NCBI GenBank assembly: GCA_004431415.1
Contig: QPMI01000064.1
Coordinates: 248,001 to 312,000 of the forward strand
Origin: Cyanophora paradoxa CCMP329
Lineage: Eukaryota; Plantae; Glaucophyta
Reading direction: 5' to 3'
DNA length: 64,000 nucleotides
Both the position numbers and the translations under genes were made by a program. This document shows positions 6,001 through 42,266 of this stretch, in pieces (position 1 is the first letter of the stretch; every line of letters begins with the position of its first letter). Below the pieces are notes generated by a model. The model did not search any database and had not been told where the DNA came from. It worked only from the letters and a program-made list of their open reading frames with translations.

Positions 6001-9000
6001 TTCATCGTATTATACGCCTCGCCCCATGAAGCCGTGACAAAAGTTCGGCTGCGAAAATCGCGCACCGGCCGCGCATTTGGTGCACTCGCTCTTTGCGAGG
6101 TTCGGGACGGAGCCGTTTGCGCACAGCGAGTAGTTTGCGGAGCCCTCCGGCGCGTAGGCCCCCGCCGGCACCGGCGCGCAGTACGTCATGTTCGCCGCGC
6201 GATATGTACCTGCGGGCGCGGAGCGCGCGCGAGGTCAGGACATGGCCACGCGTCGCCGGACACTGACATCCCTAGCGCCGCCCTGCGGCGAGCTCGCACT
6301 CGAGCAGCAGGCGCCCGCGCACCCGGCCCGCACTTGACGCATGTCTGCGAGTCCGAGGCGGCGATCTGCCCCAGCGGGCACGCCTCGCACGCCGCCGCCC
6401 CGGGCGCGGGCGCGATCGCGTTCAACGGGCACCTGCCCAGAGGCAGTCAACCGCCATGGCCACGCGCCCGAGGACGCGCGATCGGCTTCGCGAGGGCGAG
6501 CGCACCGGAGGCACTCGCGGCCGGCCTTGTGTGTGCCGGCGGGGCAGTCCACGCACTGCGCCCGCACGTCGTCCGGGATGCGCCCCGAGGCGCACCACAG
6601 GAACGATTTCGCGCCGCGCGGCGCCGCCGCTCCCGAGGGCACCGGCTCGCACGCCGTCATCGAGGCGTTGCGGAACGTCCCTGCGGCAGGCCGGGCGTCG
6701 GGCGGGCGGGCGCGGCGGGCCGGGGGCGGGGCGAAATCGCGATCAGGAGCGGCGGACCAGCCTCGCAGGGGACGCAGGACTGGGCGTCGTCGGCGGGGAC
6801 CGTTCCCTCGCCGCAGAGCTCGCACTCGACGCTCCCCTCGTCCTTCGCGAACCGCAGCCCCGAGCACCTGCCCGTCCCGCGTGTCAGCAAGGCGCTGGTG
6901 CGAGCACAGCCGGCCCGATCGGGCTGGCGAGGCCGCCGCCTGCCGTCGCCTCTGCAGCGCGCACCGCTGGCACGACTCGCCCTTCTGGTGTGTCCCTGCG
7001 GCCCGCGGCAGTCAGCCGCAGCGCGCACAGGCTTGATCTGATTATGAGCCTCGCCCCCATGATGCCGTGACAGAAGTTCGGCTGCGAAAATCGCGCACCG
7101 GCCGCGCATTTGGTGCACTCGCTCTTTGCGAGGTTCGGGACGGAGCCGTTCGCGCACAGCGAGTAGTTTGCGGAGCCCTCCGGCGCGTAGGCCCCCGCCG
7201 GCACCGGCGCGCAGTACGTCATGTTCGCCGCGCGATATGTACCTGCGGGCGCGGAGCGCGCGCGAGGTCAGGACATGGCCACGCGTCGCCGGACACTGAC
7301 ATCCCTAGCGCCGCCCTGCGGCGAGCTCGCACTCGAGCAGCAGGCGCCCGCGCACCCGGCCCGCACTTGACGCATGTCTGCGAGTCCGAGGCGGCGATCT
7401 GCCCCAGCGGGCACGCCTCGCACGCCGCCGCCCCGGGCGCGGGCGCGATCGCGTTCAACGGGCACCTGCCCAGAGGCAGTCAACCGCCATGGCCACGCGC
7501 CCGAGGACGCGCGATCGGCTTCGCGAGGGCGAGCGCACCGGAGGCACTCGCGGCCGGCCTTGTGTGTGCCGGCGGGGCAGTCCACGCACTGCGCCCGCAC
7601 GTCGTCCGGGATGCGCCCCGAGGCGCACCACAGGAACGATTTCGCGCCGCGCGGCGCCGCCGCTCCCGAGGGCACCGGCTCGCACGCCGTCATCGAGGCG
7701 TTGCGGAACGTCCCTGCGGCAGGCCGGGCGTCGGGCGGGCGGGCGCGGCGGGCCGGGGGCGGGGCGAAATCGCGATCAGGAGCGGCGGACCAGCCTCGCA
7801 GGGGACGCAGGACTGGGCGTCGTCGGCGGGGACCGTTCCCTCACCGCAGAGCTCGCACTCGACGCTCCCCTCGTCCTTCGCGAACCGCAGCCCCGAGCAC
7901 CTGCCCGTCCCGCGTGTCAGCAAGGCGCTGGTGCGAGCACAGCCGGCCCGATCGGGCTGGCGAGGCCGCCGCCTGCCGTCGCCTCTGCAGCGCGCACCGC
8001 TGGCACGACTCGCCCTTCTGGTGTGTCCCTGCGGCCCGCGGCAGTCAGCCGCAGCGCGCACAGGCTTGATCTGATTATGAGCCTCGCCCCCATGATGCCG
8101 TGACAGAAGTTCGGCTGCGAAAATCGCGCACCGGCCGCGCATTTGGTGCACTCGCTCTTTGCGAGGTTCGGGACGGAGCCGTTCGCGCACAGCGAGTAGT
8201 TTGCGGAGCCCTCCGGCGCGTAGGCCCCCGCCGGCACCGGCGCGCAGTACGTCATGTTCGCCGCGCGATATGTGCCTGCAGACGTCAACACGCAGCGCTC
8301 GAAGTCAGCAACTTTGTTCGGGATTGCTGCCCACGCGTGACGGAACACCGAAGCCTCGATCGCGATTTCCTTTCTAAAAGGCACTCACCTGGACCGCATT
8401 CCAGACAGTTCTGTGAGTCCGAAGTTGCCACGTACCCAGGAGGGCAAGTTTCACATTCCGTCGCGCCATAGATAGACGATTTGGAATTGAAGGAGCATCT
8501 GCACCAAAGTCAGGTCTAGAGGGAGGTCTGCGAATTCTTCAATCTGTTTACGCGAACCGTTCACACATCGTCTTGTTGGCGGACAAGAAAGTGCCTTGCG
8601 GGCTGTTTGCCATGGGGCATAAGACTTCAATGAGCGAACGTGTGTTCGGATTAATATTGCTGACCACTTTGTGCACGCGGTAGCTGCTCCAGCCGAAATC
8701 TCGCCAATTGGACATGGGGTGCACTTGCGCAGCGCTCCTGTCCCACGCGGGAATAAGTTAGAAGTAAAGGCTTTCAGAGGCTTTAACGTTATACTCGTAC
8801 CGGGGCTGTTGGAGTACGTCATTGGGGGGCAAGCCGAGCAGACCGAGGCCGCTGGGTATGGGAGAAAGTACCCTTCGGGGCACACTAGAAATGAATTAGC
8901 TCGAGCGAGGCCTGGGGCTCGAAGCGGCTAAACACACGTTTGCAATCCGTTGTCCAGCGGGATGTCTCTGTGAATTCGTTTTCTTTGCAAGGTTTACACG

Positions 9001-16300: not shown

Positions 16301-16755
16301 TATCCCGTACCCCGCCTGAGCACCAACCACCCCGGCCTCCCCCACAACTGGCTTGAACCCGCCCCAAAGCACTCGCTTTATAATAATTTAGATAGTAGGC
16401 GCGTATACGTAGCGCCTTGAAGCTGTGCCCTCCGGCCTTTGTTCTTGATACCGGACCGCCGCCTTTGCCTTCGTCTTCTGCTTCGCTGGTCGTATCCCGC
16501 CGGCGCCTGTTGTTAAGGGGAGGACCCCCCCTCAAACCAGACCGCCCCCCAAAGTCTGGTTTTACCTTCAGGGCTCCACCCCTTCTAGCGTCATCAATTA
16601 ACGATTTCCCTGAAAACAGTTAGACGTGCCAATTAGGCGTGTTGTTCGCTATATTACAGATTCATTGTTAGCTAGGCGTGTGCCAGTGTATTTTTGAATC
16701 GATATCTGTCATAAAGACATCTCAATGCAACATATAAATTGGAGATTGTGCTGCA

Positions 16756-17295
16756 ATGGAGACAAACATTCCTGTTGGTTCTACGGTGATTCAAATCAAG
16801 TCGGGTAGCAAGCATTATCAGTTGCTAGTTTCCGAGTTCGATAAAGACTTGCTTGCTGGATGGAGGATAACTGCATCTCCGGATGGATATCCCGAAGCAT
16901 CCAAACCACGGGATAAAGGATCAAAAGAATGGCTCAAAGTGCGCGATGTGATCCTTGGTAAAGCGAGTCCAGGATTTGTGCACTTGTCGCTGAATGGTGA
17001 TAAAATGGACTGTCGCAGAGAAAACCTTCGTACTGTGACGAAAGCGCAGCACCACCTTTATAATCGTTCGGGTATGCGAACAAGAAACACCAGTGGGTAT
17101 GTAGGTGTGATGTTTTTAGAAAAGAAAAACAAATGGCGCGCTAACTGCTCAAGAAGTGAGATACAAAAGACGATCGGTGAGTTTGAAACTGCAGAGCTCG
17201 CAGCGCGTGCCTACGATCAGTACGTTATTGATCATACTCCTGAGGCTGATCGTCAATTTCTGCATCTGAACTTCCCACAAATATCCCTGTTGTAA
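16756..17295 (+). CDS. HNH endonuclease-AP2 domain protein (left TIR copy)
   Basis: HNH_3-like HLSLNGDKMDCRRENLRTVT, then AP2-like NTSGYVGV...KWRA...IGEFETAELAARAYD. Confidence 0.85.
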   Translation: METNIPVGSTVIQIKSGSKHYQLLVSEFDKDLLAGWRITASPDGYPEASKPRDKGSKEWLKVRDVILGKASPGFVHLSLNGDKMDCRRENLRTVTKAQHHLYNRSGMRTRNTSGYVGVMFLEKKNKWRANCSRSEIQKTIGEFETAELAARAYDQYVIDHTPEADRQFLHLNFPQISLL

Positions 17296-17304
17296 AGGGC
17301 GGAC

Positions 17305-17436
17305 TGTTGTAAAGGGGAGGACCCCCCTCAAACCAGACCGCCCCCCAAAGTCTGGTTTTACCATCAGGGGTCCACCCCTATAAGCGTGATCATTGAGCGA
17401 AATTAGTGAGCTAGAGTAGACGTGTTGATTAGGCGT
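17305..17436 (+). repeat. Internal direct copy of the viral terminus (homologous to 16508-16640; mirrored at 41091-41222)
   Basis: TGTTGTAAAGGGGAGGACCCCCCTCAAACCAGACCGCCCCCCAAAGTCTGGTTTTACC nearly identical to the terminus; similarity continues to TAGACGTG..ATTAGGCGT. Confidence 0.9.
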
Positions 17437-17525
17437 TAGTTTAGGGAGATATCGGAACTGAGTTTAGGAGGGCGTGTGTGGGTGTACTTGGGGCCCCGGT
17501 TGCTTGCGCGCGGTCTGCTGCGGCC

Positions 17526-17894
17526 TCAATCATCTTCTTCCACGATGATCAATGTTTTTTCTGTAGAAGTTCTCCTATGCCTTGGTGAATCGTGTCTTTG
17601 GGCATTCCTGAAATTGAACGGGAGCAGAGCCAAATTTTGCATTGGAGTTTTAGGGATCGCATGCCCATGGGTCCCAGGCCACGAGCTCCGTCTATCAGTA
17701 GGAACTAGCCAGGGCACAGGGGAGTCTGTTCGAGATTGTTCACAGGGCGACACTGACCGAGAAGTGTTCGGAGTTCCATCAGTGCCGTCGGTTTCTGAGA
17801 TATTTAGATCAATAGTTGTTTCGCAGCAGCTGCTCTTGAGATTGCTTGTGATGTGAAGGTGAAACATGTCAAGACATCTCCTTATCAAATCCAT
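17526..17894 (-). CDS. Hypothetical viral protein (122 aa)
   Basis: ORF co-oriented with the fibre cluster; its stop codon coincides with the inner TIR boundary. Confidence 0.55.
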   Translation of the reverse strand: MDLIRRCLDMFHLHITSNLKSSCCETTIDLNISETDGTDGTPNTSRSVSPCEQSRTDSPVPWLVPTDRRSSWPGTHGHAIPKTPMQNLALLPFNFRNAQRHDSPRHRRTSTEKTLIIVEEDD

Positions 17895-17930: not shown

Positions 17931-18764
17931 CTAAGGATTAGGATCAGCCCCACCAATTGGGAAATAACGATTCGAATTGAAGGTCTCACCGTACTTAACA
18001 CCATTTGCAATCACATCTGTTCTTTCGGCAAATAGAATAATTTTGTAGGCCCCCATGAGCGTAGCCCTCACAATAAACTGGTAATCTTCAACCCCCACTG
18101 GAGTAGAATGGAAAGCGACACCGAAATTGTCAATAGGATTAATTAAAACAGCTATGTTTGGCCGGAGAGCATCGTTTCTCCTACAAAGGAAGTAGATATC
18201 CGGGGGAATATCAACAACACTCTTGAAATGATTTCCGAGTGGCTGAACGTTATCTACGATCGATGTTTGCTCATTTATGTTTAGCGTGAAGACTTTGATG
18301 ATATAAGGCGAATTCATAGAAGGCACATAGGTTCGAATTCTTTCATTTACGTTTTCAGGGTTGGGTTGATCATTAACAAATATAGGGGCACAAGCAGCTC
18401 CGCCCACTCTCAGGCCGTCTCCTATATAAGCACCTCCAAATCTGCAGGTCAAAGCTCCTATTCTTGATTCGTAGGTAAAAGTATTAACCTTGTTAGCGTC
18501 GTCATAGCTATCAGGATCGCCATAATGCGCATTAAAATTAGCATTAGTTACAAGGAGATTAGTCGTTTTAATAGTGCCATTATTTTTGTCACATCGAACC
18601 TCTCCTAAACGTAATATGTGATTCTCCCGGAAGGTGTTTAAAGTTGGCTGCTGCTCTGTGGACTCTAGGCCAGGCACATCATCTGAAACTGCATGCTGCA
18701 GGACGTGGTTGGCTGGAGCGGCGAGGGTCAACGATGGAACTACTATTCTTTCAACAGCTTCCAT
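17931..18764 (-). CDS. Fibre-like virion protein, paralogue 4 (shared N-domain; phage tail-fibre-like C-terminal domain)
   Basis: N-term HAVSDDVPGLESTE...ILRLGEVRCDKNNGTIKTTNLLVTN...GGAYIGDG shared with three neighbours; C-term KIILFAERTD. Confidence 0.7.
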   Translation of the reverse strand: MEAVERIVVPSLTLAAPANHVLQHAVSDDVPGLESTEQQPTLNTFRENHILRLGEVRCDKNNGTIKTTNLLVTNANFNAHYGDPDSYDDANKVNTFTYESRIGALTCRFGGAYIGDGLRVGGAACAPIFVNDQPNPENVNERIRTYVPSMNSPYIIKVFTLNINEQTSIVDNVQPLGNHFKSVVDIPPDIYFLCRRNDALRPNIAVLINPIDNFGVAFHSTPVGVEDYQFIVRATLMGAYKIILFAERTDVIANGVKYGETFNSNRYFPIGGADPNP

Positions 18765-18792
18765 TTTAGAAAACAGAAGATAAAACTTTCAT

Positions 18793-19641
18793 TTAAGGTA
18801 TAGGATTTTCCGGATTGCCTTCCTCATACATATTATTCAGTGCTGGATCAACGTTCAGCCCTCTAGTAGCCACTGATGCAGCCACATCGGAGCGATAGCC
18901 GATGATTAGGATAGAGTATCGGCCTATCGCAGTAGCATATAAATCGAAAAGGTGCCTTGTATTAATATTACGAACAACGTATCCACGTCCTGCGTGTCCT
19001 AGACCCTGTACAAAGAACGTGTAAACATGGCCTATTTGATCATTTTGATCTTGACAGAGCGATTGAAGTGCCTTGGGGATTTCTCTGTTTGAAAGCAGCC
19101 TCTCACCGTCCAGACCATTTGGTGTACTTGAATTTGCTATGGTTATCTCAACCTCTACTAGAGCTTGTGCATAGGGAAGGTCACAGCAAGGTACATACAT
19201 GCGAACTCGTTTACGATTTTCAACATTCTCTACTGAAAAATCCGGCACATCATTGATGGCAATTGATGATGACAGCCCTCCACTGACTCTGCAGGCTCCG
19301 GTGATAGCTGCTCCACCGGAGCGCACAGTGAGGGCAGCAGTGTTTTGATCATAGTTTATGCTTCGGAGGTCAACACTGTACGAATCAACTCCTCCTGTTA
19401 TGGGCTGGGAGAAATTGGCATTTGTAACTAATAATCTAGTTGTTTTGACAACTCCAGAGTTTTTATCTGCACGCAATTCTTTACACCGAATCACCGATCG
19501 CTGATCAAATGCATTAGTTGAATTTGGACGCTCGGTGGACTCCAAACCAGCAATAGCATCACTAACTTCATGCTGCCTCATATGGATGGCTGGGGAGCCC
19601 AGCGAGTAGATAGGTAGTTGGACCCGATTGTACTCGGTCAT
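18793..19641 (-). CDS. Fibre-like virion protein, paralogue 3 (likely start MTEYNR)
   Basis: HEVSDAIAGLESTE...VIRCKELRADKNSGVVKTTRLLVTN; C-term ILIIGYRSD, similar to paralogue 4. Confidence 0.7.
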   Translation of the reverse strand: MTEYNRVQLPIYSLGSPAIHMRQHEVSDAIAGLESTERPNSTNAFDQRSVIRCKELRADKNSGVVKTTRLLVTNANFSQPITGGVDSYSVDLRSINYDQNTAALTVRSGGAAITGACRVSGGLSSSIAINDVPDFSVENVENRKRVRMYVPCCDLPYAQALVEVEITIANSSTPNGLDGERLLSNREIPKALQSLCQDQNDQIGHVYTFFVQGLGHAGRGYVVRNINTRHLFDLYATAIGRYSILIIGYRSDVAASVATRGLNVDPALNNMYEEGNPENPIP

Positions 19642-19672
19642 TTGATAGAAACGCGAGAGAAAAAAATAGGCT

Positions 19673-19939
19673 TCACGGCTCTTCTGTGACATTGTTATAC
19701 TCGATTGCCTTTTTTACAGTTCCCCTTTGGAAAGCCTGTAAAACAATAGCCTCCTTTGAGGATGGTATTTGAATACCACCTGAGATGCAAGACTGGATCT
19801 CTTTCTGAACAATCTCATCAATTGCAATTCTTGCTCTGTTGTGGGCTGCATTATCAATCCAATCCTGAACAGAAGCAGCGCAATATTCCATTCCCAATTT
19901 CTCAGTATCTGAGAGAATCACTTGGTATATATTCGACAT
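19673..19939 (-). CDS. Small protein resembling phage tail-fibre-associated hypothetical proteins (likely start MSNIYQ)
   Basis: Motif QDWIDNAAHNRARIAIDEIV...GIQIPSSKEAIVLQAF resembles, from memory, small proteins next to C1q fibre genes in marine phages. Confidence 0.6.
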   Translation of the reverse strand: MSNIYQVILSDTEKLGMEYCAASVQDWIDNAAHNRARIAIDEIVQKEIQSCISGGIQIPSSKEAIVLQAFQRGTVKKAIEYNNVTEEP

Positions 19940-19961
19940 TCCTATTTTATGATAAGAAAAT

Positions 19962-20990
19962 TTATGTAATGCTGATAAGCTCACCTGCAAATGCTGTTTT
20001 GGAAGTATAAACCCCATTTGAATTTGTTACAAGTGTTACATATTCGTTAGCAGCAATGTAAAGAATACAATTAAGCGAAATGGTTTTGTATCCAGCAGTG
20101 TTTGAAGCAATTACATTTATTGCAACTCCACTTGGGTTTGCATCATTTACTTGAAGAGTGAGCTCTATGGGTAGTGATGAGGCTTGTGAGTAGGTAACTG
20201 CTGAAAAACGGTAATGCCCTGAAACAGGAGCAGTAAATCTCCCATTAGCAACTGCAAAATGATTTGTAGGATGATTCAGTTGAACAATTCCCCAATTTAT
20301 CAAAGCAGTGGCGCTTGTTGCTGTATGATTATAGTTTAGCTGAACACAAAACCGTGGTTGGGAATGATATTTTAAATAGTTCTGTGTGTTGATTGTCAGA
20401 CAGTTGGATTCAAGCAACGCCACAGTATTGCTATTTCTTTTCAGCAGCAGATTTGTGGCTGATCCAGTATCTATTTCAGGGGTAATTACTTTTGTTGATG
20501 CTTGGACTATCTGTTGAGATTGATTTGGTATGGAAATACCAGCAGGTGCAGTAACAAGACCAGTAAAAGAACTTGTTCCTGTTATACTTACCTGAGTTGC
20601 TGTAAGAGTTCCATCAATTCTTGCACCATCTCCTATGTATGCACCTCCACTTTTAACGACAAGAGCAGAATTATTGCTTGTGTTATCAAAAGTAACTATT
20701 TTAGGTGTGGTGACTCCTCCCACATCATCATATATCGCGGAATCAGAAACAATCTGACCTGATTGAACTTGGTTCTTGTTTGATACAATGAGACCTGTGG
20801 CTCTCACTTTACCTCCGTTTCTATCACATCTTACTTCTTTGCATCTTATGACTGAGTTTTGAGAGAATGAATCCGCTCCTGTGGTCTCTGTGCAAATAAA
20901 CCCAGGTGTTGCATCTGTAACAGTGTGGTTAAGTTGATGTATTTTTGGGGCTGCGTAACAGAAAACAGGGACTGCTATTTGAGTGGTCAT
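19962..20990 (-). CDS. Fibre-like protein with C-terminal C1q/TNF-like head, paralogue 2
   Basis: Shared N-domain plus C1q signature FAVANGRFTAPVSGHYRFS. Confidence 0.8.
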   Translation of the reverse strand: MTTQIAVPVFCYAAPKIHQLNHTVTDATPGFICTETTGADSFSQNSVIRCKEVRCDRNGGKVRATGLIVSNKNQVQSGQIVSDSAIYDDVGGVTTPKIVTFDNTSNNSALVVKSGGAYIGDGARIDGTLTATQVSITGTSSFTGLVTAPAGISIPNQSQQIVQASTKVITPEIDTGSATNLLLKRNSNTVALLESNCLTINTQNYLKYHSQPRFCVQLNYNHTATSATALINWGIVQLNHPTNHFAVANGRFTAPVSGHYRFSAVTYSQASSLPIELTLQVNDANPSGVAINVIASNTAGYKTISLNCILYIAANEYVTLVTNSNGVYTSKTAFAGELISIT

Positions 20991-21012
20991 TCTTTATATT
21001 ACACAGACAATT

Positions 21013-22068
21013 TTATGTTAAACTCACAAGCATTCCACCAAAAAGTAAACGGGAGGGATATGTTGAGTAAGGATAATAAAGTTGTATAGAGTCATTTTCG
21101 GAAAGATTTATCAAAATATCAAGTCCATAGCAAGTGACTCCAGCTTTTTCTTGGTTGTAAACTTGAAATCCGGTGTCTGCTCCGTTTTTGTATAACATTA
21201 AATAAAATATAGTCGACGAAGTTCCAATTGAGAAGAAGAACCTATAACATCCAGCGATTGGTGCTGTAAAAGTTCCTGTTGTAGGATCAAAGCAATTTCC
21301 CTGATCTACCAACTCTGTCCCATAAGAAGTTATTGGACCACTTCCAGAAGGAATGGTGAAAGTTAAAGCTCCATTTGGCGATTGCTTTGCGGCGAAAAAT
21401 CTTGGACAACCATTTCGTTTTAGATACTTTTCGTTTGATAGTGTCAGAGTCTCGTAATGAGTGGGTGTCTGTAAATTGGAAGGTATCTTTTCAAGAGAGA
21501 AAATTGTTATACCATTCCTTTTATAGTTCATATTCAAATCGGCACCATTATCTATCTCAGGTGCATTGACCCTTGTAGTAGCTGTGAGAGTTCCATATTG
21601 GATACTTCCTGAGAGACCACCATTCAACGACATTAATCCTGTAAATGAGCTTGTCCCACTCACATTTAATTGATTTGCTGTGACAGTGCCCACTACATTA
21701 GCTCCATCACCAATATAGGCTCCACCACTCCTGACCACAAGAGCCGAGTTATTGATTGTGTTATCGAAAGTAACTATCTGTGCTGTGCTAAATCCACCAA
21801 AATTATCATAGACTGCCGAATCGGGGACTACCTGGCCTGCTTGAACCTGATTTTTATTCGAGATAATAATTCCTGTGGTTCTTATCTTGCCTCCATTTCG
21901 GTCACAGCGTATTTCTTTGACTCTCAGTATATTGGTTTCGGTTAAGGAGGTATTGCTTGCTGTTTCGGTGCAGATATTTCCAGGTGTAGAATCAACTACT
22001 TCATGAGAGGTGCTGTGTAGTGATTTTGCTGCAAGTTCATAGTTTGGAATCTCTAAAAGGGAGGTCAT
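21013..22068 (-). CDS. Fibre-like protein with C-terminal C1q/TNF-like head, paralogue 1 (likely start MTSLLE)
   Basis: Shared N-domain plus C1q signature CFDPTTGTFTAPIAGCYRFFF. Confidence 0.8.
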   Translation of the reverse strand: MTSLLEIPNYELAAKSLHSTSHEVVDSTPGNICTETASNTSLTETNILRVKEIRCDRNGGKIRTTGIIISNKNQVQAGQVVPDSAVYDNFGGFSTAQIVTFDNTINNSALVVRSGGAYIGDGANVVGTVTANQLNVSGTSSFTGLMSLNGGLSGSIQYGTLTATTRVNAPEIDNGADLNMNYKRNGITIFSLEKIPSNLQTPTHYETLTLSNEKYLKRNGCPRFFAAKQSPNGALTFTIPSGSGPITSYGTELVDQGNCFDPTTGTFTAPIAGCYRFFFSIGTSSTIFYLMLYKNGADTGFQVYNQEKAGVTCYGLDILINLSENDSIQLYYPYSTYPSRLLFGGMLVSLT

Positions 22069-22087
22069 CTTTATAATTACGAAATAG

Positions 22088-25000
22088 TTAAATTGCGACA
22101 GCAATGTAATGAATTGTAACTGGAAATCCTGGTCTGTCAAAAGAACTTAATGGAACTATGTCAAGCTCACAAGTGAAATAGCTACTGTAAACTTGTTTAA
22201 GCCTAACATACATTCGATAGTAGTAGGCTGTCTCATTGTGTTGTATACCAGTTGTTACAATAGGAGGGTTAGCAAAGCTGCTGTTGAAATTAATAGTGAG
22301 GTTAAACCTATGGTCAGGATTTGCCCAAAGATAAGGAGTAGTGTAAACATACGTTCCTGCTTGGATTTTCCCATTAAAATATGCATTGAGTTGACTGGAA
22401 AGATCTGCCTCCGTAATACATCTACTTATAGTGGCATTATTGGAAGGGTTCATGGCATAGAAATTCCTTGCATAAGCATTTCCACGAACAAGTAAGGTCT
22501 TATCGAAATAATTTTGCGAATTGTGGAAAAACCATGTTTCTTCAAACATAGGTCCTGCTGGTTCTACTATCTGACCTGATCCAACATACATTGTGTTATT
22601 TGCTCTGATGGTGGTAGCTGTGAAGGGATCAAGAGTTGGTCTATTGGTCAAATCGAGGTAGTTGCCTGAGAATAACGCCGGTTTGTTATAGATGTCAGTA
22701 TTCCAATCATGGGTATGACCAACATACGAAACATTTCCCAGGTCTGTAATCTCAGCCTTCGTATGAGTGTGTGCAAAATCTGTAATCTCGCTCTTGACAT
22801 GAGTATGTGCAAAATCAGTAATCTGTGACTTCGTGTGAGTGTGAGCAAAATCTGTAATCTCTGATTTTACATGATTGTGAGCAAAATTCGTAATATCCGC
22901 TCTTGTGTGGTAGTGTGCAAAATCTGTAATTTGTGATTTTGTGTGGGTATGTGCAAAATCTGTGATCTCTGCCTTTGTGTGGGTATGTGCCCTGTTATTC
23001 AGATCAAGGAAGCTTCCCGAGAATGCTACTGGGTGCAGATTTGCAGCAGTAGGTTTGTTTAGAAGATCATTATAGTCTCCTGTGAAAGAGATGGTTTTCA
23101 GTTCACCCCTTCCTACATAATCAGAAGGTAGGTCAATCTTAATGGGCATAATAGCTGGATCAATAGGAATCTCGTACTCAGCTCCTGGGTGAACCACAGG
23201 AAAGGTTTGATCACTTTCAGTGTGAACAAAAAAGTTGTCAGCAGTCACTGTTCCATCAATAGTTCCTCCTGTCAAGGGCAGGTAATTCCCTGTCACAGCT
23301 AGACCTGCAATAACTAAAGCGAGCTCTGTTTCATCTACATAATTTTGGGCTTGAAGGTAATCCTCTGTGACCACTCTGGATATAGTCTCGTTGTGAATGT
23401 TTTTTGCTGCTGCCCTCTGATTAATTTCTAAAATGCCCTGCCCAACTCCACCGTTATAGTTCGTTTTTATCCATGCTATTTCGCATTTCTTATAATCATC
23501 TCGATTTCCTATCAGAGCATTGGGTAAAAGGCGTTCACGGCTAAAAACTAATTTCGGTCTCGATGAATCTAAATCGCTAACATCTGTTACATTAATCTGG
23601 ATTGCAGAATGAAAATCAGCATGGGAGAGAGGATCCAACGGCAGTGAAGGCAAAGGAGGTAGAACAGATGTCATTTCGATGTCAGAGGCGTAGTAGTTTG
23701 TGACATAAATACTTGGGAACGTGTCCTGCAAACCAATATTCCCGCCAGCAGCAACTATCTCCATTCCACGGGGAATCCTTACAAACAAAGAGCCTGACAT
23801 GTCAGTGTTAGCACGAATTCCCTGCCTGTGGACATAGTGGTCATTCAAATATAACCTTTCAGGGGTGTTAATTGATTTGTAGAGAGAGACAGCTAGTGTG
23901 ACAGGAAGCTCAATCTTTGCGAACTCGGGCTGCTCATCTATTTCGCTCCAAATGTGTCTGTGATCTTCCGGTGGAAATTCAAGCGGAACATTATCAAGGT
24001 CACCCCAGTCGTGTCTATGATCCTCTGGGGGGAACCGTAAAGGCTTATTATCGATCTCAGCCCAATCATGTCTGTGATCCTCTGGGGAAACCGCAACGGT
24101 TTATTATCGATTTCATCCCAATCATGCCTGTGTTCCTCTGGTGGAAAACTCCCAGGTTTATTGGTTATTGATTCCCAATCTACGGTGAACTCCAAGGGGA
24201 AGAGAATAGGTTCAAAGCCGTCTGGAAGCAGCTGCTCATGTGGAATCACAGGTTGCTCGTACTGGAGTTCTTGAACATCTAAGCCATCAGGAAGTAACTG
24301 CTCTTCAGGCTCTGTGTACATTTCGAGCGGGAAAACTTCAATATCAGGCGGCAGGTATTCTTCATGCGGATGCTTATAGCGTTCTATCACGGGGCGATTC
24401 CTGACAGCCTCCCACGAAATAATATTTTGCCCGAATGGAATTGTTTCATCTGCAACTCTCTCACGACCTGGCCCTTCAGGGTTTGGCTTCGGTAGCCCTG
24501 GAAGAGGTGGTATAGGTGGTATAGGGACAATAGGTCCGAAGTAGTAGTTGAAAATGTTTATTATCTCCGGTTCAGTGATGACCTTTTTTCCATCTTGGTA
24601 AATCGACGTGCCGTGAATATTTCGCCACTGCCTGGTGCGAAGCCCTAGGTCATATCTATCATGCAATGCCGGGAGCAGGTGTCTGTCAGCTTCCATCAGG
24701 ATCGAGCCAAAGGTGCATCCAGGAATATCTAACCTGGTGGCTGGCTCGGTATCGATTTGATTTACATCAAAACCGTATAAAATATTTGCTTCTCGTGCAG
24801 CTGTAAAAAGTAAATCCCAGGGAAACGGCTGGATTTGTGATGCTAGCACTGATATTCCTGCAGGCGCAGCGTCGCTGCTTGTCTGCGACTCTTCGCCAAG
24901 GAGAATTCGCCCTGTAATGTGAGCCGCAGTCTTGTTTGTGACAGCATTGGATTCATCAATTAGACGTAGAGCTGATATATGGATCCCTCTATCATTTTGA

Positions 25001-25353: not shown

Positions 25354-26838
25354 ATGAAGGTGATTCTCTCGTTATCAGGTGGAGGTGCTCGTGGCATAAT
25401 TATAACCAGAATTCTGCAACGGATTGAGGCAATCACTGGCAAAGCGATTCCACAACTGTTTGACTTCGTTGCAGGAACGAGTACAGGGGCTATCATAGCA
25501 GCTGGTTTGGCTATACCATCAACTCCGGGCTCTGTTCTCGCTTACCGATATTCTGCGGGCGATATCTTGAGTCTCTACCAGACAAACCTGCCAGTAATAT
25601 TTGCGAATCCTAGATCGCTAACGAGCCTGCTTGCAGGAAGCCGCTATGATGCAAACCCTCTAGAGTCGGTGCTCACAGACGTTGCCCTGGACTACACAAT
25701 TGCAGAATCGACAAAAGACATATTAATTACAGCGTTTGATACAGTTCGGATGCAGCCTGTAGTCTTTACCAAGGATGGGCCGTACTCAAGCACGCTGATT
25801 CGTGATGCAGTTAGAGCATCTTCTGCAGCGCCAACATTCTTTCCACCGAAGGTTCTAGGAGACAAAAACCTTGTTGACGGGGCCATCGCCTGTTTGAATA
25901 ATCCCTCAGTTGCTGCACTCAGCCACGCCAGCAAAATTTATGATGCAGAGGATCCAATTGTTCTTGTGAGCATCAGCTGTGGTGAGGTCCAAGCTAGTGA
26001 GCAACTGACTGCAGGCTTTTCGAATGCAGAGACGTCAGGCTGGGGCGCCCTGGGCTGGATCCTATCCCTCTCAGGCAGCCCTATTATTTCTATGCTAATG
26101 GCTGGGAGCGAGCTGGAATCGCACTTTCAAATGCAGGAGCTGCTTCCAGTTGATGCAGATAGGAATCTCACTAGATACTGGCGTTTAAGTGTTCCGCTGC
26201 CAGCTGCAGTCATGAGCAAGCTTGATGATGCCTCGCCTTCGAATATTTCTTATTTGATTTCCACGACTGATTTATGGCTGAAACAAATCGAAATAAATGC
26301 TAAAATAAATGCACTCTGCAGTTTTCTATTGGCGAACTACGACCTACTGAACGATGAGAGACTTATCATATCGTCTACTTTAACAGTTGAGCCTCCATTT
26401 GATGTCAACTGGTTTATAATTCCAGATGCGAATATCACAAGCAACGACTTCGAGGAATTGCACCCACCTTCTCATGTGCGACCCAACTCTACAGGGTTTC
26501 AGGGGGGAACATTACCTAATCCCTGGATCAAAGTCGAGTTTCCCAAGCCTTTTGAGCTACATCAAATCATTATGTATGGGCCAGCCTTTGCTGCCGGAGT
26601 CCTATTTAATTTCAGCATTCTGACCAACTTAGGATATTTACGAGACGGGGCACTATTTGAAAACACGGTCCTATCAAATGTGCTTGCTGCGAACCCAACT
26701 ATGACAGGCTTCGATCTAATGCATAGTGACTCGCATTTGATCACCCCACAGGTGTATAACTATGTGCAAATTATAACAAACGAATTTATAAATGTAAATG
26801 CATTCCGGCTTGATTTCCGGGGACGTTACCTAAACTAA
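25354..26838 (+). CDS. Patatin-like phospholipase with a C-terminal extension
   Basis: LSGGGARG oxyanion motif, GTSTG nucleophile, RASSAAPTFF, DGA catalytic Asp. Confidence 0.92.
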   Translation: MKVILSLSGGGARGIIITRILQRIEAITGKAIPQLFDFVAGTSTGAIIAAGLAIPSTPGSVLAYRYSAGDILSLYQTNLPVIFANPRSLTSLLAGSRYDANPLESVLTDVALDYTIAESTKDILITAFDTVRMQPVVFTKDGPYSSTLIRDAVRASSAAPTFFPPKVLGDKNLVDGAIACLNNPSVAALSHASKIYDAEDPIVLVSISCGEVQASEQLTAGFSNAETSGWGALGWILSLSGSPIISMLMAGSELESHFQMQELLPVDADRNLTRYWRLSVPLPAAVMSKLDDASPSNISYLISTTDLWLKQIEINAKINALCSFLLANYDLLNDERLIISSTLTVEPPFDVNWFIIPDANITSNDFEELHPPSHVRPNSTGFQGGTLPNPWIKVEFPKPFELHQIIMYGPAFAAGVLFNFSILTNLGYLRDGALFENTVLSNVLAANPTMTGFDLMHSDSHLITPQVYNYVQIITNEFINVNAFRLDFRGRYLN

Positions 26839-30153: not shown

Positions 30154-30909
30154 TTGATGGATGGGTCAGACGAGCTCGCACAGTTCCAGCCTAGCGATAT
30201 GAGGGTCCCATTTAAGGCCCTGTTTATATCGAAATCTAATAGCGGCAAGTCTTTCTACTGCACCAAGCATCTGCTGCGGCTGCTCTATCCAAAGATTAAT
30301 CGAGTCGTCGTGTTTACGGCCACAAAATTCAATGGCGAATATTCGGCAATAACTAAAGAGCTTTACGACGATTTTCAGCCCTCTATCGTTGCAGAGATAA
30401 TTGACTCACAGCGCAAGCTGATCGAAAACAAAAAGAAAGCGCCACAGATATTGCTCGTCTTGGATGATCTCGTCGCCGCCTCTGAAACTGTAGATCTGCG
30501 AAACAGCAAGGCTGTAAATCGACTTTTTACTCAGGGTCGTCATTTTAATATCAGTACGATTCTTATGACCCAAAAGCTAACAGCTCTTAGTCAATCTATA
30601 AGATCGAACTCCGACTATTGTTTTTTCTTCAGTTACTCTAATCACACGGAGCTGGAGGCCATTTATAGAGAGTTTAGCCATCTCCCAAAAGAAGAGTTTA
30701 TAGCTTTATTTGAAACCTGGGCGCACGATTATCAGTGCCTAGTCCTAGATGGAACTAAGTACGATACGGCCTGGTACGTTGACAAAGCTGCTGAAGATAA
30801 GAGCTTTCGTTTCTCTAAATGGCTAAGACAAAAAGAAGAAGAAGTCTCTAAGACAGAAGAGTCTCTTGTAAGCTCTAAGAAGAAACGCCGATTTAAAATA
30901 TCAGTATAA
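30154..30909 (+). CDS. A32-like (FtsK-HerA) genome-packaging ATPase
   Basis: Walker A variant SKSNSGKS, Walker B LLVLDD, LFTQGRHFNIS..LMTQ, IRSNSDY. Confidence 0.92.
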   Translation: MMDGSDELAQFQPSDMRVPFKALFISKSNSGKSFYCTKHLLRLLYPKINRVVVFTATKFNGEYSAITKELYDDFQPSIVAEIIDSQRKLIENKKKAPQILLVLDDLVAASETVDLRNSKAVNRLFTQGRHFNISTILMTQKLTALSQSIRSNSDYCFFFSYSNHTELEAIYREFSHLPKEEFIALFETWAHDYQCLVLDGTKYDTAWYVDKAAEDKSFRFSKWLRQKEEEVSKTEESLVSSKKKRRFKISV

Positions 30910-32243: not shown

Positions 32244-33431
32244 TCACGCTCGCGGTCGCAGCGTTCGCGTATTGCTAGGGGCTGAGTACGCTGCAGTTTT
32301 ATTCTGGAACGACGAATACCAGCGCCTTGTTACGCCCCCTGGGTTCAGCTTCTCTGTGCCTGCAGTCAACAGTTGCTTCTGCACACGCTCAAGCTTGCGT
32401 GCCCTCTCGATATCGCTCTTGTCTAAATTCTCCTGCATCAGATTAATCTCTTTCTTCCTGCGCTGCTGCGCTCGCTGTGCTGCATTGCCCGCACGACGTT
32501 CCTCTGAATCTGCCGCTACTTTTAATAGTCGCTGGTAGGTCACAGCTTTGTCGTAGCCCGAAAGCGTAAATTTGAGCAGCGGCCCAAAGCCACCTATCTC
32601 CGTAATCGTATAGATTTCTTTAGAATACGTCGGCTTTGATGACTTGTCGAATCGCTGACGCTCTAGCTGCACACGCACTCGATCACCTATCTTGAAGTCC
32701 GCTTGCGCAAAGTAATGCTGCTGCTCGTAAGCCTCTCGCTGATAATCGTTGCGAGCAATCGTCTCCTTTGGATTCTCGGCTGCTGCGTTCGGCGACGTAC
32801 CGATTGACCTATGCTCTGATGAATTATAATTGCGCAAGAAAGCAGGCAGCTTATCGATATATCTGTCCGTGTCGTACGCATCCATGTACTTTGCAATGAT
32901 GCGCTTAAGCGTACCATTAAATCTCTCTATTTTGCCGTTCGCTTGCGGGCGATGCGCCTCCACTGCATTATGCTTGATTCCCATACTCGCCAGCATTGCT
33001 GCTGCGGTTCCCTTAAACTCCTGATCGGTCTGAATGACGTCCGGCTTCGAGGGGAGCTCATCAATCAATTTCTTCAAACTCGCTAGCAGAGTGCTTTCCG
33101 ATTTCGTCTTCATAGGAATGCTATACGCTTTACGCGTCGTCACATCAATACCGTTCATTATAAAAGTAATCCCTCGATTTGTTCTTGCATACGGGGTCAC
33201 ATCAATCAGATCAACTTCGTAGTACTTTTCGGGCTCCTCGTAAATAATGCTGGTGGACGGCTTTTCCTTCACGGGTTTCGCAAAACGCTGTGCCGTCGTT
33301 AATTTCGAAAGCACGTCCTGCACTTTTGATAGCGGTAAATTGAGCCGCTTAGCTATCCGCGCCGCAGACTGAAAGCCAGTTTCCGGATCGTAATAAGCTT
33401 GTTTAATTCGACTCGCCTGCTCGGTACTCAT
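32244..33431 (-). CDS. Polinton-type rve (DDE) integrase
   Basis: YYDPETGF, YEVDLID (D), IQTDQEF (D), NGKIERFNGTLK (E), YNSSEHRSIGTSP, FKIGDRVRV, FDKSSKPTYSKEIYTI. Confidence 0.95.
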   Translation of the reverse strand: MSTEQASRIKQAYYDPETGFQSAARIAKRLNLPLSKVQDVLSKLTTAQRFAKPVKEKPSTSIIYEEPEKYYEVDLIDVTPYARTNRGITFIMNGIDVTTRKAYSIPMKTKSESTLLASLKKLIDELPSKPDVIQTDQEFKGTAAAMLASMGIKHNAVEAHRPQANGKIERFNGTLKRIIAKYMDAYDTDRYIDKLPAFLRNYNSSEHRSIGTSPNAAAENPKETIARNDYQREAYEQQHYFAQADFKIGDRVRVQLERQRFDKSSKPTYSKEIYTITEIGGFGPLLKFTLSGYDKAVTYQRLLKVAADSEERRAGNAAQRAQQRRKKEINLMQENLDKSDIERARKLERVQKQLLTAGTEKLNPGGVTRRWYSSFQNKTAAYSAPSNTRTLRPRA

Positions 33432-36400
33432 GGGGGACGCTACTATAGTACTCGTCCGAAATTATCTTGCGCTTTGTATACTGCGACTTGTTCAGCTGTC
33501 GAGCAAACGGAATTTGGATCATGGAACTAAAGCTGATTCCGCTCTCCCGTTGCCGCCCGTTCGGTTTATAAACACGGGCCAGCTTTGATTCGATTGTGCA
33601 TTTGGGTTGGTACGCGGGATCCTCGAGCATGCACCTGTAAGCTTCCAGAGCGATCCTGCGGTCGAGGGCCCCCTTCCTCGCCTCTGGTTCGTCTGGCAGC
33701 CAGTGCTCCTGGATCCACAATTGCGGAATCCCCTTTGCGCGTACATGCAGATCAAACTGCGCGTCGCTGTCCCGTACAAATAAACAAGTATAAAGCTTCG
33801 GCCCAATAAAGTACGCTTCCACAATCCGCCCTTTAATGTCACAGTCAAGTTTCCCTAGTTCCTGCCTGCAAATGTCCGCATCTGTTGCTGTCGCTATATC
33901 ATATGCTGGCTTCATATAACCCTTTGCCCGCAGCAGATCGGCGTATTTTCGATGGACAATCAAAGAGTCCGTATCAGTATAAAACGGCATTGCATCAATG
34001 TTCCAGTATGCGCCTATTTCAATTAGAAACCTGTCCATGATCTCCCGCGAATATGACAGAATAAATGCGCCAATAAAGCACGGTTTAGAGACAGCTCTAT
34101 CACGCTTGGACTCCTCAATCTCGTACGTGACAAACATCCGCGTGTCTGACTCGATCGAAATGTCTGTGATCTGCGCTGATCGCTGAATTTCTCGAAATCG
34201 CTTGTAAGATGTGACTAGATCCGAGGTGGTGATGACAGGCCGCTGGCAATATTTACCGTAAAGGCCATTCATGGAAATCTTTGACGTCGCGTACTGAGCT
34301 GTCCCCTTGCGAGATCTAGCTTTCTGGCAGTACATACGCTCCATGTAGGTCTTGAATATTTGATCTTTTCCATCAAACAGGTAGACCTCGTGCACCTTTG
34401 TCACCTCGCACCCCAGCTTAATTGCACGATTAATATCGACTGACGTATACCAGCCGCGCTCAATCGGCTTAAGATTAGACCAGCCTAGATTTGATTCATG
34501 CCGCGGCAGCGGAGAGAGCAGCAGATTTTGCGGAATTGTCACGTCCACGCACGCAATAAACATCAGCGAACGCTGACTCGATTGGACAAATTTGCAGAAT
34601 CTGTCCAGTGCATCGGGCGACGTAATATGCTTGTACTTACCAGTCGGAAACCAATTCTCGTACATTGCCGTCGGATACAAGCTTACGACATCCAAGTCGA
34701 CTAAATAATCATCCGGGCCCGATGAGACGAATTTGCGTTTAAACGGGAGACACCGCCCACCGTATATTGCCTGGCGCAGCACCTGATCATCCTTGTAGGT
34801 CGGCAGCGAAATTGGATTGATCAAAGTCTGCCGATGAATCTGGAACGCCATTGCCGACGCTGTGGTTGTTTGCGTCGTGTTCACGTTTAAGCCGTAGAGA
34901 TCGAAAACTGCTGTTGAATATTTAATATAAAGCTCTGTCATTGCCTTGACGTCGTCTTCCACGTATGGCTCCCATTCAGATTTAAAGCGCTCAACGTCCT
35001 CCCACGTTTTAATCTTGCTATGATCAAAATCGCCCTTTACGTTAGTGCAGCCGTAGTCCTTGCAGGCCTGCTTGAGCGATGCCTGGATGTGCAGGCACGG
35101 ATCAAATGTACTAATAGCCCCGCCGGCAGCCGTTCTCCAGGACATATTCTTGATCTTGCCATTTGACCGCAGAACATTTAATGCGGTCTCTGGTCGATTT
35201 AAAACGAGCCACTTGTAGATGAATATATAATCGAAACCAGATCCATTGTAGAACACCAGCGTCGTCTTCTCGCTGCGGCGCTCAAGCCAGCGCATAAATA
35301 AGTCCAGCGTTTGCTCACCGTAAATTAACTCGCACGAGGACACCCCTCCTTTCTCAATCATGCAGTAGCTGACAGCGTACGGGACGTGCGTTTTACCGTC
35401 GGCAGCGAACGTTTCGAAATCCGCGCAGACAACGCTGTCCAATGCTGTTAATTCGGTCTCCGGTTTGCAGGGCTTGATCTGCCGCCCAATTACGTTCTGC
35501 CGGCGCGTCATCTCCTGACACTCCGACGTGTGGTCACCTCTAGGGTCATACGCACGCTTGCAGCGATTGCAGAAGGAGCACTGTGCCACATGCGCCGCCA
35601 AATTAAACATCTTTCCGCAGCAAGGGCACCGCTCCAAACCTAGCGTCGCTTCCTTTTTTACCAGATAGCAATGCCCGTCGATGTTGCAGAGAATTGCACG
35701 CTTCGAATAACCGAACTGGGTTCGAAAAAGCTCCTTGAATTTCGTGGCAGCCCACTCCGTCACGGTTGCATCAGTCGAATAAAATCGGCAGATCGCTTCC
35801 ACTGTGCCTCGATTAAGAGATATCATGCCCTTTCCCAGTCCAAGCCGCTCTCGAATAGATGCGTAGGGTGCCTTTGCCAGCTTTTCGATTACTGTCTTCA
35901 GGCTCAGCCCGCGTGGATTTAATTTCACATACTCAAAGCATTCGAGCACGCAGTCATTCGCTGGGGACATCGGGCAGTAAAGCTTGTCGACTGTTCTGTG
36001 ATAAAAAGGCAGTTTCGGTACGTTGCCTAGGGCGCCAGCCGCGTTATCTGCGATCAGCACTTCAATTGATGTCACTGTCCAAAAATCGTCTTCCTGGTAC
36101 GACATTTGAGCCGCCATCCACTGCGCAATGCGCTCATCCAGGCTCTCGGTCAAGGTCTGCAGTGCATTCTGTCTAATCTGAATCAGCTGCGTTGTGTACA
36201 TGTGATTGTTGTCAAAGCGGAACCGAATTATCACAAAGCGCCCTATCATCTCCGCAACGCCCAGCTGTCCGAGGATGTCAATCGTTAAATTCTTGACCGA
36301 CTCAGGATCAAAGTTGGGCTCAATCGCATATACATGCTTATCAAACAGCAAATTCGGATAGCGGTGATGCCTGTGAGAAAGCACACCATCTAGATCTCGC

Positions 36401-36729
36401 GGCACTGGTATTTCTTCAACGTCTTGAAATATATTCGGGACGTCTTCTAGTATCGCCTCCTCGGCCTGAACGGCGTTTGCGCGAGCTGCTGCAATTGCGC
36501 CAAAATGGCCTGCGAGCTGGCTTTCAAATAATCGGCGAGCTGGGCGAACTGTCCCTCGCAATCGCAGCAGTGTCGCAATATAGTTGCGAATCGTGCGGCC
36601 CCAGGTCCCGCCGCTAGCGTCCGCTAGGCGCATTAGTTTGTTTCGAAATGTCCCGTGAATATATCCACGATCGTAAAGCTCTGTCGCTAAATTTCTAAGT
36701 TCGGTCTTAAGTGCTGCAGTGGTGGTCAT
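33403..36729 (-). CDS. Protein-primed family B DNA polymerase with an N-terminal terminal-protein/vOTU-like extension
   Basis: Exo motifs CADFET, FYNGSGFDY, YVEDDV; Pol motifs YGGRC, DVVSLYPTAM, KISMNGLYGK, YTDTDSL, GPKLY, RAKGI. Confidence 0.95.
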   Translation of the reverse strand: MTTTAALKTELRNLATELYDRGYIHGTFRNKLMRLADASGGTWGRTIRNYIATLLRLRGTVRPARRLFESQLAGHFGAIAAARANAVQAEEAILEDVPNIFQDVEEIPVPRDLDGVLSHRHHRYPNLLFDKHVYAIEPNFDPESVKNLTIDILGQLGVAEMIGRFVIIRFRFDNNHMYTTQLIQIRQNALQTLTESLDERIAQWMAAQMSYQEDDFWTVTSIEVLIADNAAGALGNVPKLPFYHRTVDKLYCPMSPANDCVLECFEYVKLNPRGLSLKTVIEKLAKAPYASIRERLGLGKGMISLNRGTVEAICRFYSTDATVTEWAATKFKELFRTQFGYSKRAILCNIDGHCYLVKKEATLGLERCPCCGKMFNLAAHVAQCSFCNRCKRAYDPRGDHTSECQEMTRRQNVIGRQIKPCKPETELTALDSVVCADFETFAADGKTHVPYAVSYCMIEKGGVSSCELIYGEQTLDLFMRWLERRSEKTTLVFYNGSGFDYIFIYKWLVLNRPETALNVLRSNGKIKNMSWRTAAGGAISTFDPCLHIQASLKQACKDYGCTNVKGDFDHSKIKTWEDVERFKSEWEPYVEDDVKAMTELYIKYSTAVFDLYGLNVNTTQTTTASAMAFQIHRQTLINPISLPTYKDDQVLRQAIYGGRCLPFKRKFVSSGPDDYLVDLDVVSLYPTAMYENWFPTGKYKHITSPDALDRFCKFVQSSQRSLMFIACVDVTIPQNLLLSPLPRHESNLGWSNLKPIERGWYTSVDINRAIKLGCEVTKVHEVYLFDGKDQIFKTYMERMYCQKARSRKGTAQYATSKISMNGLYGKYCQRPVITTSDLVTSYKRFREIQRSAQITDISIESDTRMFVTYEIEESKRDRAVSKPCFIGAFILSYSREIMDRFLIEIGAYWNIDAMPFYTDTDSLIVHRKYADLLRAKGYMKPAYDIATATDADICRQELGKLDCDIKGRIVEAYFIGPKLYTCLFVRDSDAQFDLHVRAKGIPQLWIQEHWLPDEPEARKGALDRRIALEAYRCMLEDPAYQPKCTIESKLARVYKPNGRQRESGISFSSMIQIPFARQLNKSQYTKRKIISDEYYSSVPHEYRAGESN

Positions 36730-36832
36730 TGCAATCGCTTTCAAGAAGAGGGACTGAAATTATTTTCGGATTTCAACGCAACAATCTCTGACTGTCAGTT
36801 AGACTGAGAGGAATCTTTAAGCCATAGCTCAG

Positions 36833-40998: not shown

Positions 40999-42019
40999 TG
41001 AGGCCGCAGCAGACCGCGCGCAAGCAACCGGGGCCCCAAGTACACCCACACACGCCCTCCTAAACTCAGTTCCGATATCTCCCTAAACTAACGCCTAATC
41101 AACACGTCTACTCTAGCTCACTAATTTCGCTCAATGATCACGCTTATAGGGGTGGACCCCTGATGGTAAAACCAGACTTTGGGGGGCGGTCTGGTTTGAG
41201 GGGGGTCCTCCCCTTTACAACAGTCCGCCCTTTACAACAGGGATATTTGTGGGAAGTTCAGATGCAGAAATTGACGATCAGCCTCAGGAGTATGATCAAT
41301 AACGTACTGATCGTAGGCACGCGCTGCGAGCTCTGCAGTTTCAAACTCACCGATCGTCTTTTGTATCTCACTTCTTGAGCAGTTAGCGCGCCATTTGTTT
41401 TTCTTTTCTAAAAACATCACACCTACATACCCACTGGTGTTTCTTGTTCGCATACCCGAACGATTATAAAGGTGGTGCTGCGCTTTCGTCACAGTACGAA
41501 GGTTTTCTCTGCGACAGTCCATTTTATCACCATTCAGCGACAAGTGCACAAATCCTGGACTCGCTTTACCAAGGATCACATCGCGCACTTTGAGCCATTC
41601 TTTTGATCCTTTATCCCGTGGTTTGGATGCTTCGGGATATCCATCCGGAGATGCAGTTATCCTCCATCCAGCAAGCAAGTCTTTATCGAACTCGGAAACT
41701 AGCAACTGATAATGCTTGCTACCCGACTTGATTTGAATCACCGTAGAACCAACAGGAATGTTTGTCTCCATTGCAGCACAATCTCCAATTTATATGTTGC
41801 ATTGAGATGTCTTTATGACAGATATCGATTCAAAAATACACTGGCACACGCCTAGCTAACAATGAATCTGTAATATAGCGAACAACACGCCTAATTGGCA
41901 CGTCTAACTGTTTTCAGGGAAATCGTTAATTGATGACGCTAGAAGGGGTGGAGCCCTGAAGGTAAAACCAGACTTTGGGGGGCGGTCTGGTTTGAGGGGG
42001 GGTCCTCCCCTTAACAACA
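40999..42019 (-). repeat. Right terminal inverted repeat (1021 bp)
   Basis: Reverse complement of 16508-17528. Confidence 0.95.
41232..41771 (-). CDS. HNH endonuclease-AP2 domain protein (right TIR copy)
   Basis: Protein identical to 16756-17295. Confidence 0.85.
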   Translation of the reverse strand: METNIPVGSTVIQIKSGSKHYQLLVSEFDKDLLAGWRITASPDGYPEASKPRDKGSKEWLKVRDVILGKASPGFVHLSLNGDKMDCRRENLRTVTKAQHHLYNRSGMRTRNTSGYVGVMFLEKKNKWRANCSRSEIQKTIGEFETAELAARAYDQYVIDHTPEADRQFLHLNFPQISLL

Positions 42020-42266
42020 GGCGCCGGCGTACTTCGTCTTATAGTTTAGTTCGGTCTAGTTCGGATTCTGATCGTAGTGTTGATGCTAGAGTTAGTTTCA
42101 ATACTAGCTATAGTCCTCGTGCTCGACCTGTTGTTCGCCGTCGTTTGCAGTTCGACTGCCCGCCTCGACCTTTGTCGATTATTGTCGATTTTGGCTCTTT
42201 GTCTTATCTTTCTTCGTGCTCTTGTCTTAGTTATTTTGTTTTTTTGTCTTTATGCCCCCTGGGCAG

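Follow-up and report, generated by a model that had tools for sequence, protein, structure and literature searches.

How does a gene come to lie between two copies of a viral genome end, within the TIR of an integrated virus, and what does its product do there? This question is raised by an element in the window analyzed here, a 64,000-nt stretch of contig QPMI01000064.1 of Cyanophora paradoxa CCMP329. A first-pass annotation of the same sequence proposed that an HNH-AP2 endonuclease cassette of about 800 bp had added itself, with its own copy of the origin, to the end of an ancestral virus, and that it homes to genome termini.

The element is integrated, measures 25.5 kb (16508-42019) and has GGCGCC on both sides as a 6-bp TSD (Table 1). 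Because it encodes pPolB, an rve integrase and an A32-like ATPase, it is a Polinton-like element; the pairing of an rve integrase with a 6-bp TSD is typical of Polintons and Polinton-like viruses (PLVs), and its 1021-bp TIRs and length lie within the range of this group (long TIRs, 14-40 kb). The 462-aa ORF labeled as the putative major capsid protein adjoins the ATPase gene and has no match in Pfam, PHROG or PDB. Its only homologue is a Cyanophora paradoxa gene model (64% identical), which makes a glaucophyte alga the likely host, and its fold model reaches a pLDDT of 37.7 from a 2-row alignment. An Rfam search of positions 14500-44000 returned no match.

Table 1. Features of the Polinton-like element and its borders (positions in the window).
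Feature	Position	Strand	Remark
Left TSD GGCGCC	16502..16507	.	Palindromic empty site in high-copy host repeat
Left TIR, 1021 bp	16508..17528	+	Identical to right TIR
Outer terminal module: TGTTGT start, ~80-nt hairpin, three AG(A/G)CGT islands	16508..16693	+	Hairpin z -3.0
41-bp block identical in outer and inner module (= 17322-17362); predicted crossover site	16526..16566	+	Coincides with contig break points
HNH-AP2 ORF, 179 aa, intact	16756..17295	+	TATAA ~20 nt upstream
17-nt degenerate stub of terminus nt 1-18	17288..17304	+	Holds the ORF's TAA stop
Inner terminal module and 224-bp inner TIR	17305..17528	+	Hairpin z -3.6
ORF overlapping the inner TIR end; its stop codon is the last 3 nt of the inner TIR	17526-17894	-	
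Putative major capsid protein, 462 aa	28748..30136	+	Label from size and position
A32-like packaging ATPase	30157..30909	+	PF04665, E 9.5e-10
rve integrase	32244..33431	-	PF13683, E 2.2e-8
Protein-primed PolB (pPolB)	33403..36729	-	PF03175, E 4.9e-52
Right inner terminal module and inner TIR, mirror copy	40999..41222	-	
Second HNH-AP2 ORF copy, identical	41232..41771	-	
Right outer terminal module, mirror copy	41834..42019	-	
Right TSD GGCGCC	42020..42025	.	

From the outside inward, each TIR consists of the outer module, the HNH-AP2 ORF, the stub, and the inner module with the inner TIR; left and right TIRs (the latter 40999-42019) are identical at 1021/1021 positions. The TSD adjoins the outer modules, i.e., the outer end is the one joined to host DNA. 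As the first-pass annotation had noticed, the first ~133 bp recur in direct orientation: positions 16508-16640 match 17305-17436 at 82% (E 3e-30), and the arrangement is mirrored at the right end, at 42019/41222. The similarity extends beyond the span first reported, to 16693/17489. It is graded, with 58/60 matches over the first 60 nt and 7-16/20 per block from nt 61 to 200, and the two modules are ~80% alike overall. Their longest exact block has 41 bp, an ~80-nt hairpin is predicted in both, and the islands TAGACGTG, TTAGGCGT and GGCGTGTG are conserved between them.

The AG(A/G)CGT islands are thus repeated and kept in both modules. In the form AGRCGTGT, the motif occurs six times in the element, always within the TIRs; since 5 of 100 shuffles also reach six, this enrichment by itself lacks significance. 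TGTTG at the terminus is complementary to CAACA, the RAV-type AP2 site, and TEM1 is among the top fold matches of the protein; this was rejected as evidence, as fold similarity shows no specificity.

The stub abuts the inner terminus. It had been described as a 12-nt sequence (17288-17299) supplying the ORF's stop codon; it does hold the TAA, and its true extent is 17 nt. The chance expectation for its 12-mer is 0.0016 per strand in the element. Besides the stub, one substitution and one missing C distinguish the inner start from the outer one.

The protein encoded between the termini matches HNH_3 in Pfam with 25.0 bits (cut-off 24.8) and AP2 with 24.8 bits, below the cut-off of 33.3. Its predicted model (pLDDT 92.3, 62-row alignment) has two domains: the N-terminal part superposes on I-HmuI (Z 6.8, rmsd 2.6, 78 aligned) and the AP2 part on WRI1 (Z 10.7, rmsd 1.5, 64 aligned), which gives the predicted HNH beta-beta-alpha fold together with a DNA-binding domain. 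The AP2 part shows a three-strand sheet and a helix, and it retains the conserved YxG V, W, G-F, AAxAYD and NFP residues. The protein matches PHROG 99 with E 5.8e-19, and the top BFVD matches include HNH/AP2 proteins of Fadolivirus, Klosneuvirus and Yasminevirus (E 3e-13 to 3e-11); WD40 matches were spurious. The gene descends from the I-HmuI-like HNH-AP2 family. Its GC3 of 0.43 is similar to that of native genes, and its upstream TATAA is shared with 10 of 21 ORFs, a count taken without a background control.

The active site is where the protein departs from its family. According to the accessible part of PMC12724721, the catalytic residues of I-HmuI are D74, H75 and N96; mapped through the alignment of homologue P0006, they correspond to L77, S78 and H99 here. 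The first-pass annotation had read HLSLNG as an atypical HNH motif with a catalytic His, but that residue is H76, two places upstream of the catalytic His position, and the D-H pair itself has become L-S. For comparison, 137 homologous domains were available after 22 of 159 proteins, whose match did not span the HNH core, had been dropped. Among them, 130 retain D, 134 retain H and 129 retain N; a conserved upstream His is present in 129, and 121 have all four positions; the equivalents of D74 and H75 are both changed in only two (P0051 and P0120). In the Cyanophora protein, the upstream His is Arg. A second metal ligand is present in register (H99, or H100), and a His at the N96 position is permitted by the HN(H/N) motif (PMC12724721, in its accessible part); the positions truly lost are therefore those of the D-H pair and the upstream His. 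H76 is unique among the homologues, 120/137 of which have V or I there, and an active site shifted to it is unlikely.

Structural HNH residues and the AP2 core are thus conserved, while the catalytic ones are lost. Phage and giant-virus HNH-AP2 proteins of the I-HmuI type share the same two-domain fold; unlike them, this protein has lost its catalytic residues. On the basis of the model and the alignment, it is likely a nuclease-dead DNA binder, which agrees with the fallback offered in the first-pass annotation, that the protein binds rather than cuts. Since the catalytic D-H pair is lost, active homing to termini at the present day is not supported, and an active, self-spreading homing gene is unlikely. 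The protein would be a clear case of an HNH-AP2 protein keeping its fold while losing catalysis, a step that has been proposed for the origin of AP2 transcription factors. In a quick tree of 138 HNH-AP2 domains, it sits on a long branch (1.54 vs. a median of 0.77); this tree leaves it unplaced, and therefore no donor is claimed. The searches returned no catalytically intact close relative, the best identities being 35-46%, and a weak search among 780 candidates returned no longer fused form.

The reality of the arrangement and its variation among copies were followed in sequencing runs. The stretch or part of it is contained in 20 of 24 listed runs, four of which were examined: the DNA runs X1, X5 and X14, and X20. 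In all three DNA runs, one contig spans 16654-17351 without differences and so contains the junction of gene, stub and inner terminus, and overlapping contigs cover both flanking modules. Because the junction lies within a single contig in each DNA run, it is not an assembly artefact. Run X20, which we guess to be RNA, covers an inner-type TIR variant and leaves the cassette without cover; it was not counted as evidence. At position 17650, all three DNA runs have C where the window has T, either through misassembly or as a change particular to one copy.

The cassette, inner TIR and left interior had contig depths, which are not copy numbers, of 139.6/403.1/257.5 in X1, 266.6/649.4/447.2 in X5 and 82.4/235/194 in X14; the contigs also differ in GC (0.45, 0.55, 0.49). 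The cassette/inner-TIR ratios are thus 0.35, 0.41 and 0.35. The left-interior/cassette ratios are 1.84, 1.68 and 2.35, where 0.5 would be expected if all copies had the cassette at both ends; these ratios, uncalibrated against single-copy sequence, come from runs that may represent one strain. As a soft hint, most copies of this body and inner TIR appear to be without the cassette, which would then be a minority form, present in at most 21-30% of left-interior copies. Such additional copies might be fragments, or bear a different cassette. This element by itself would already produce the contig branch points at the 41-bp block, which leaves depth as the ground for assuming cassette-free copies; a complete cassette-free end was not seen in contigs of the examined DNA runs. 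It had also been suggested to look for copies that start at the exact inner sequence. The cassette contig is unbroken through 17305-17351, and hence no such copy is visible in any of the three DNA runs, in contigs that can drop rare variants; short-ended copies, if real, start differently from the inner sequence, by as little as one C.

Where, then, did the outer end come from? In all three DNA runs, a separate contig holds the outer sequence 16537-16683. Its depth exceeds that of the cassette contig, which begins at 16654, and this suggests that the outer terminus has a second continuation. Between 16566 and 16641, the outer end agrees with a sibling terminus at 67/76 positions (9 differences) and with the inner end at only 51/76; in the DNA-run contigs, this sibling terminus then departs into unrelated sequence. 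Being nearer to a sibling terminus than to the inner end of its own genome, the outer end fits capture from a relative better than self-duplication, and sequence comparison suggests that it was taken from a related lineage. The earlier picture of a cassette added to the virus end therefore holds insofar as depth softly indicates a separable module, but a plain copy of the virus's own origin is not supported. The run contigs contain no visible donor in which the HNH-AP2 gene continues into an interior of its own; the gene always runs into the stub. Likewise, viral contigs and metagenome contigs yielded no relatives by terminus pattern, HNH-AP2, putative capsid protein or pPolB. As a separate observation, the most abundant sibling terminus, about four times as deep as the cassette, follows the outer module up to 16641 and then continues as unrelated sequence that begins with ATG.

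The reading we prefer, held at even confidence, is that the cassette is the captured end of a related Polinton-like virus, a terminus with its first gene, placed head-to-tail on the element's own terminus, with a protein predicted to be a non-cutting DNA binder. A single event would have joined the two, through template switching or end joining between sibling genomes replicating together, and the 17-nt stub would be the scar of the join. Strand-displacement replication with TIR pairing would then copy the cassette to the other end; copying between ends in this way is established for protein-primed linear genomes. The outer module would take over as origin and integrase site. Ordinary recombination through the identical 41-bp block could excise the cassette or transfer it, without any nuclease, and because this block permits loss and transfer, ends with and without the cassette would coexist. 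The protein may serve as an accessory DNA binder, acting on terminus motifs or promoters and dispensable in cis. End capture from relatives with a built-in exit would offer a route by which the variable, kilobase-long TIRs of PLVs grow and gain genes.

A broader version, tentative and on balance doubtful, is that PLV siblings trade end cassettes, each a terminus with one gene, which add themselves outside the genome end, replace the former origin and integration site, and reach both ends. The present cassette would then carry a terminus-targeting HNH-AP2 endonuclease disarmed into an origin-binding protein. If this were true, the cassette would be a selfish element that parasitizes genome termini instead of interior sites.

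Among the alternatives, the cassette may be the relic of a terminus-homing endonuclease, a history that we regard as unlikely. A once-active HNH-AP2 enzyme would have nicked ends that lacked the cassette, which would then have been added by one-sided repair through the inner module; as the new outer end resembles the target, self-cutting would have selected for the loss of catalysis. The descent of the gene from the I-HmuI-like family fits this history, as do the depth hint of cassette presence and absence and the altered inner start, whose substitution, missing C and stub are what an immunized target might show. HNH insertion elements are also described as parasites of Tlr1 and PLVs in the accessible parts of PMC5499653 and 10.1101/2022.07.28.501842. 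However, no catalytically intact close relative emerged, neither from the searches nor among longer proteins, and the timing is discordant: the lack of differences between the inner TIR and the deeper shared contig suggests that the split is recent, but the long protein branch suggests an old inactivation. Homing alone would also leave the likeness of the outer module to another sibling family unexplained.

Next, and quite improbable in our view, the long TIR could be ancestral and the protein a domesticated origin-binding or transcription factor, with short ends arising by deletion between the 41-bp blocks and helped in trans. The intact ORF, with its structural and AP2 cores conserved despite catalytic loss, its native-like composition and upstream TATAA, and the repeated AG(A/G)CGT islands kept in both modules are all consistent with such a history. 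The lack of visible copies with the exact inner start is also expected if crossover gives short ends the outer start; yet the smallest difference needed is one C in a homopolymer run, which says little on the direction of gain or loss. Against an ancestral long TIR stand the apparent minority status of the cassette, soft as that estimate is, and the sibling termini that run into unrelated sequence after 16641.

That the protein is at present an active terminus-homing nickase with a rearranged active site, H76 serving as base and H99 as metal ligand, is highly unlikely. The predicted HNH fold is retained, H76 is two residues away from the lost His and on the same strand, and the His at the N96 position is a permitted variant; but the D74 and H75 equivalents are both replaced, a change this complete is rare among the homologues, and the otherwise conserved upstream His is Arg. 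Moreover, the virus's own outer ends would share their first 60 nt with any target. Least probable by far is an assembly artefact of collapsed repeats, for although multi-copy PLV ends are hard to assemble (PMC8547959, in its accessible part) and the window departs from the runs at 17650, the junction contig recurs without differences in the three DNA runs with overlapping contigs over both modules, and these modules are only ~80% alike.

The gene bracketed by two termini is thus a real and unusual architecture, a variation on known systems. With Polintons and PLVs, the element shares pPolB, the rve integrase, the A32 ATPase, TIRs of about 1 kb and the 6-bp TSD. In the accessible portions of the literature, the TIRs of Polintons and PLVs are hundreds to thousands of bp long and rve goes with 6-bp TSDs (PMC12220804), EMALE TIRs range from 0.2 to 2.3 kb (PMC8547959), long and variable TIRs are known (PMC8547959; 10.1101/2025.10.09.676808), and Adintovirus-like contigs occur in C. 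paradoxa data (PMC8502044). The difference is the gene between two terminal modules inside the TIR, which the accessible PLV literature does not describe. A search of main texts found no account of it in a PLV TIR, and the PLV tables in the supplements of PMC12220804 and PMC8547959 may hold similar TIRs; the accessible parts of PMC10120064, PMC5182062 and PMC11071308 contain nothing on the arrangement.

Genes of the HNH family are themselves no novelty in these elements. Tlr TIE proteins carry AP2 domains. The HNH insertion elements of Tetrahymena Tlr1 (TIE genes) and free-standing homing endonuclease genes of PLVs resemble the present case in that an HNH-family gene is patchily distributed among related PLVs; the cases described in the accessible text include PgVV/Gezel-14T Seg2, the Montjoie2259 HNH gene and a Symbiodinium NUMOD4-HNH-AP2 gene (PMC5499653; 10.1101/2022.07.28.501842; PMC12220804), the last being an HNH-AP2 fusion in a PLV (PMC12220804). 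Where these accounts give a position, the genes are internal, between capsid genes or fused to helicases. The gene studied here, in contrast, lies at the terminus in duplicate, comes together with a genome end, and has no catalytic D-H pair.

A second group of comparable systems comprises genomes whose ends are repeated, and in all of them the difference is that the two termini here apparently derive from separate sibling lineages, with a foreign-type gene between them. The embedded ITRs of adenoviruses are an example of reiterated or embedded termini in protein-primed genomes. The trinucleotide reiteration used by adenovirus for jumping-back initiation resembles the TGTTGT start found here (PMC5175343, accessible part). 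In PgVV, the terminal sequence is likewise repeated inside the end, as TIR units (10.1101/2022.07.28.501842, accessible part), and the TIRs of megamimiviruses carry genes and are presented as hotspots of gene gain in the accessible part of PMC13712841.

Several further observations concern the interior of the element. On the minus strand, four tandem ORFs (17931-22068) share a related N-terminal region with a CDKN/CDRN-containing stretch, and two of them end in C1q domains; next to them lies a fibre-like protein (22088-23800) with 12-aa repeats and an H-lectin-like end, so that the 17931-23800 region looks like an expanded fibre/receptor-binding cluster. A patatin-like phospholipase (25354-26838, plus strand; PF01734, E 6.4e-25) is a possible entry lipase. 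The ~3.4 kb at 36730-40100 are nearly without ORFs and contain tandem repeats of 81-bp, 85-bp and ~155-bp units, 40-bp inverted repeats (37599-37638 vs. 37916-38217) and host-like low-complexity tracts; the region may represent nested non-autonomous transposons or an internal regulatory region. Two short consecutive frames at 39696-40480 (plus strand), the second with a Walker A-like GTGKT, look like a broken helicase or Rep gene, with no Pfam match of note and no PHROG match.

The element is inserted at the center of a 14-bp palindrome, CGCC-GGCGCC-GGCG, which corresponds to the empty site; a further copy of this palindrome lies within the element (39141-39154). The flanks 16428-16507 and 42020-42090 belong to a very high-copy host repeat, with a summed depth of 28703 vs. 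140 for the cassette in X1, and a target preference for this repeat is possible. X1 and X14 also contain another contig, which matches from 16497 onward and has a different flank upstream of it. Farther out, positions 2925-8390 hold a host tandem array of ~1017/1033-bp units that are 99% identical and encode cysteine-rich (CxxC) repeats.
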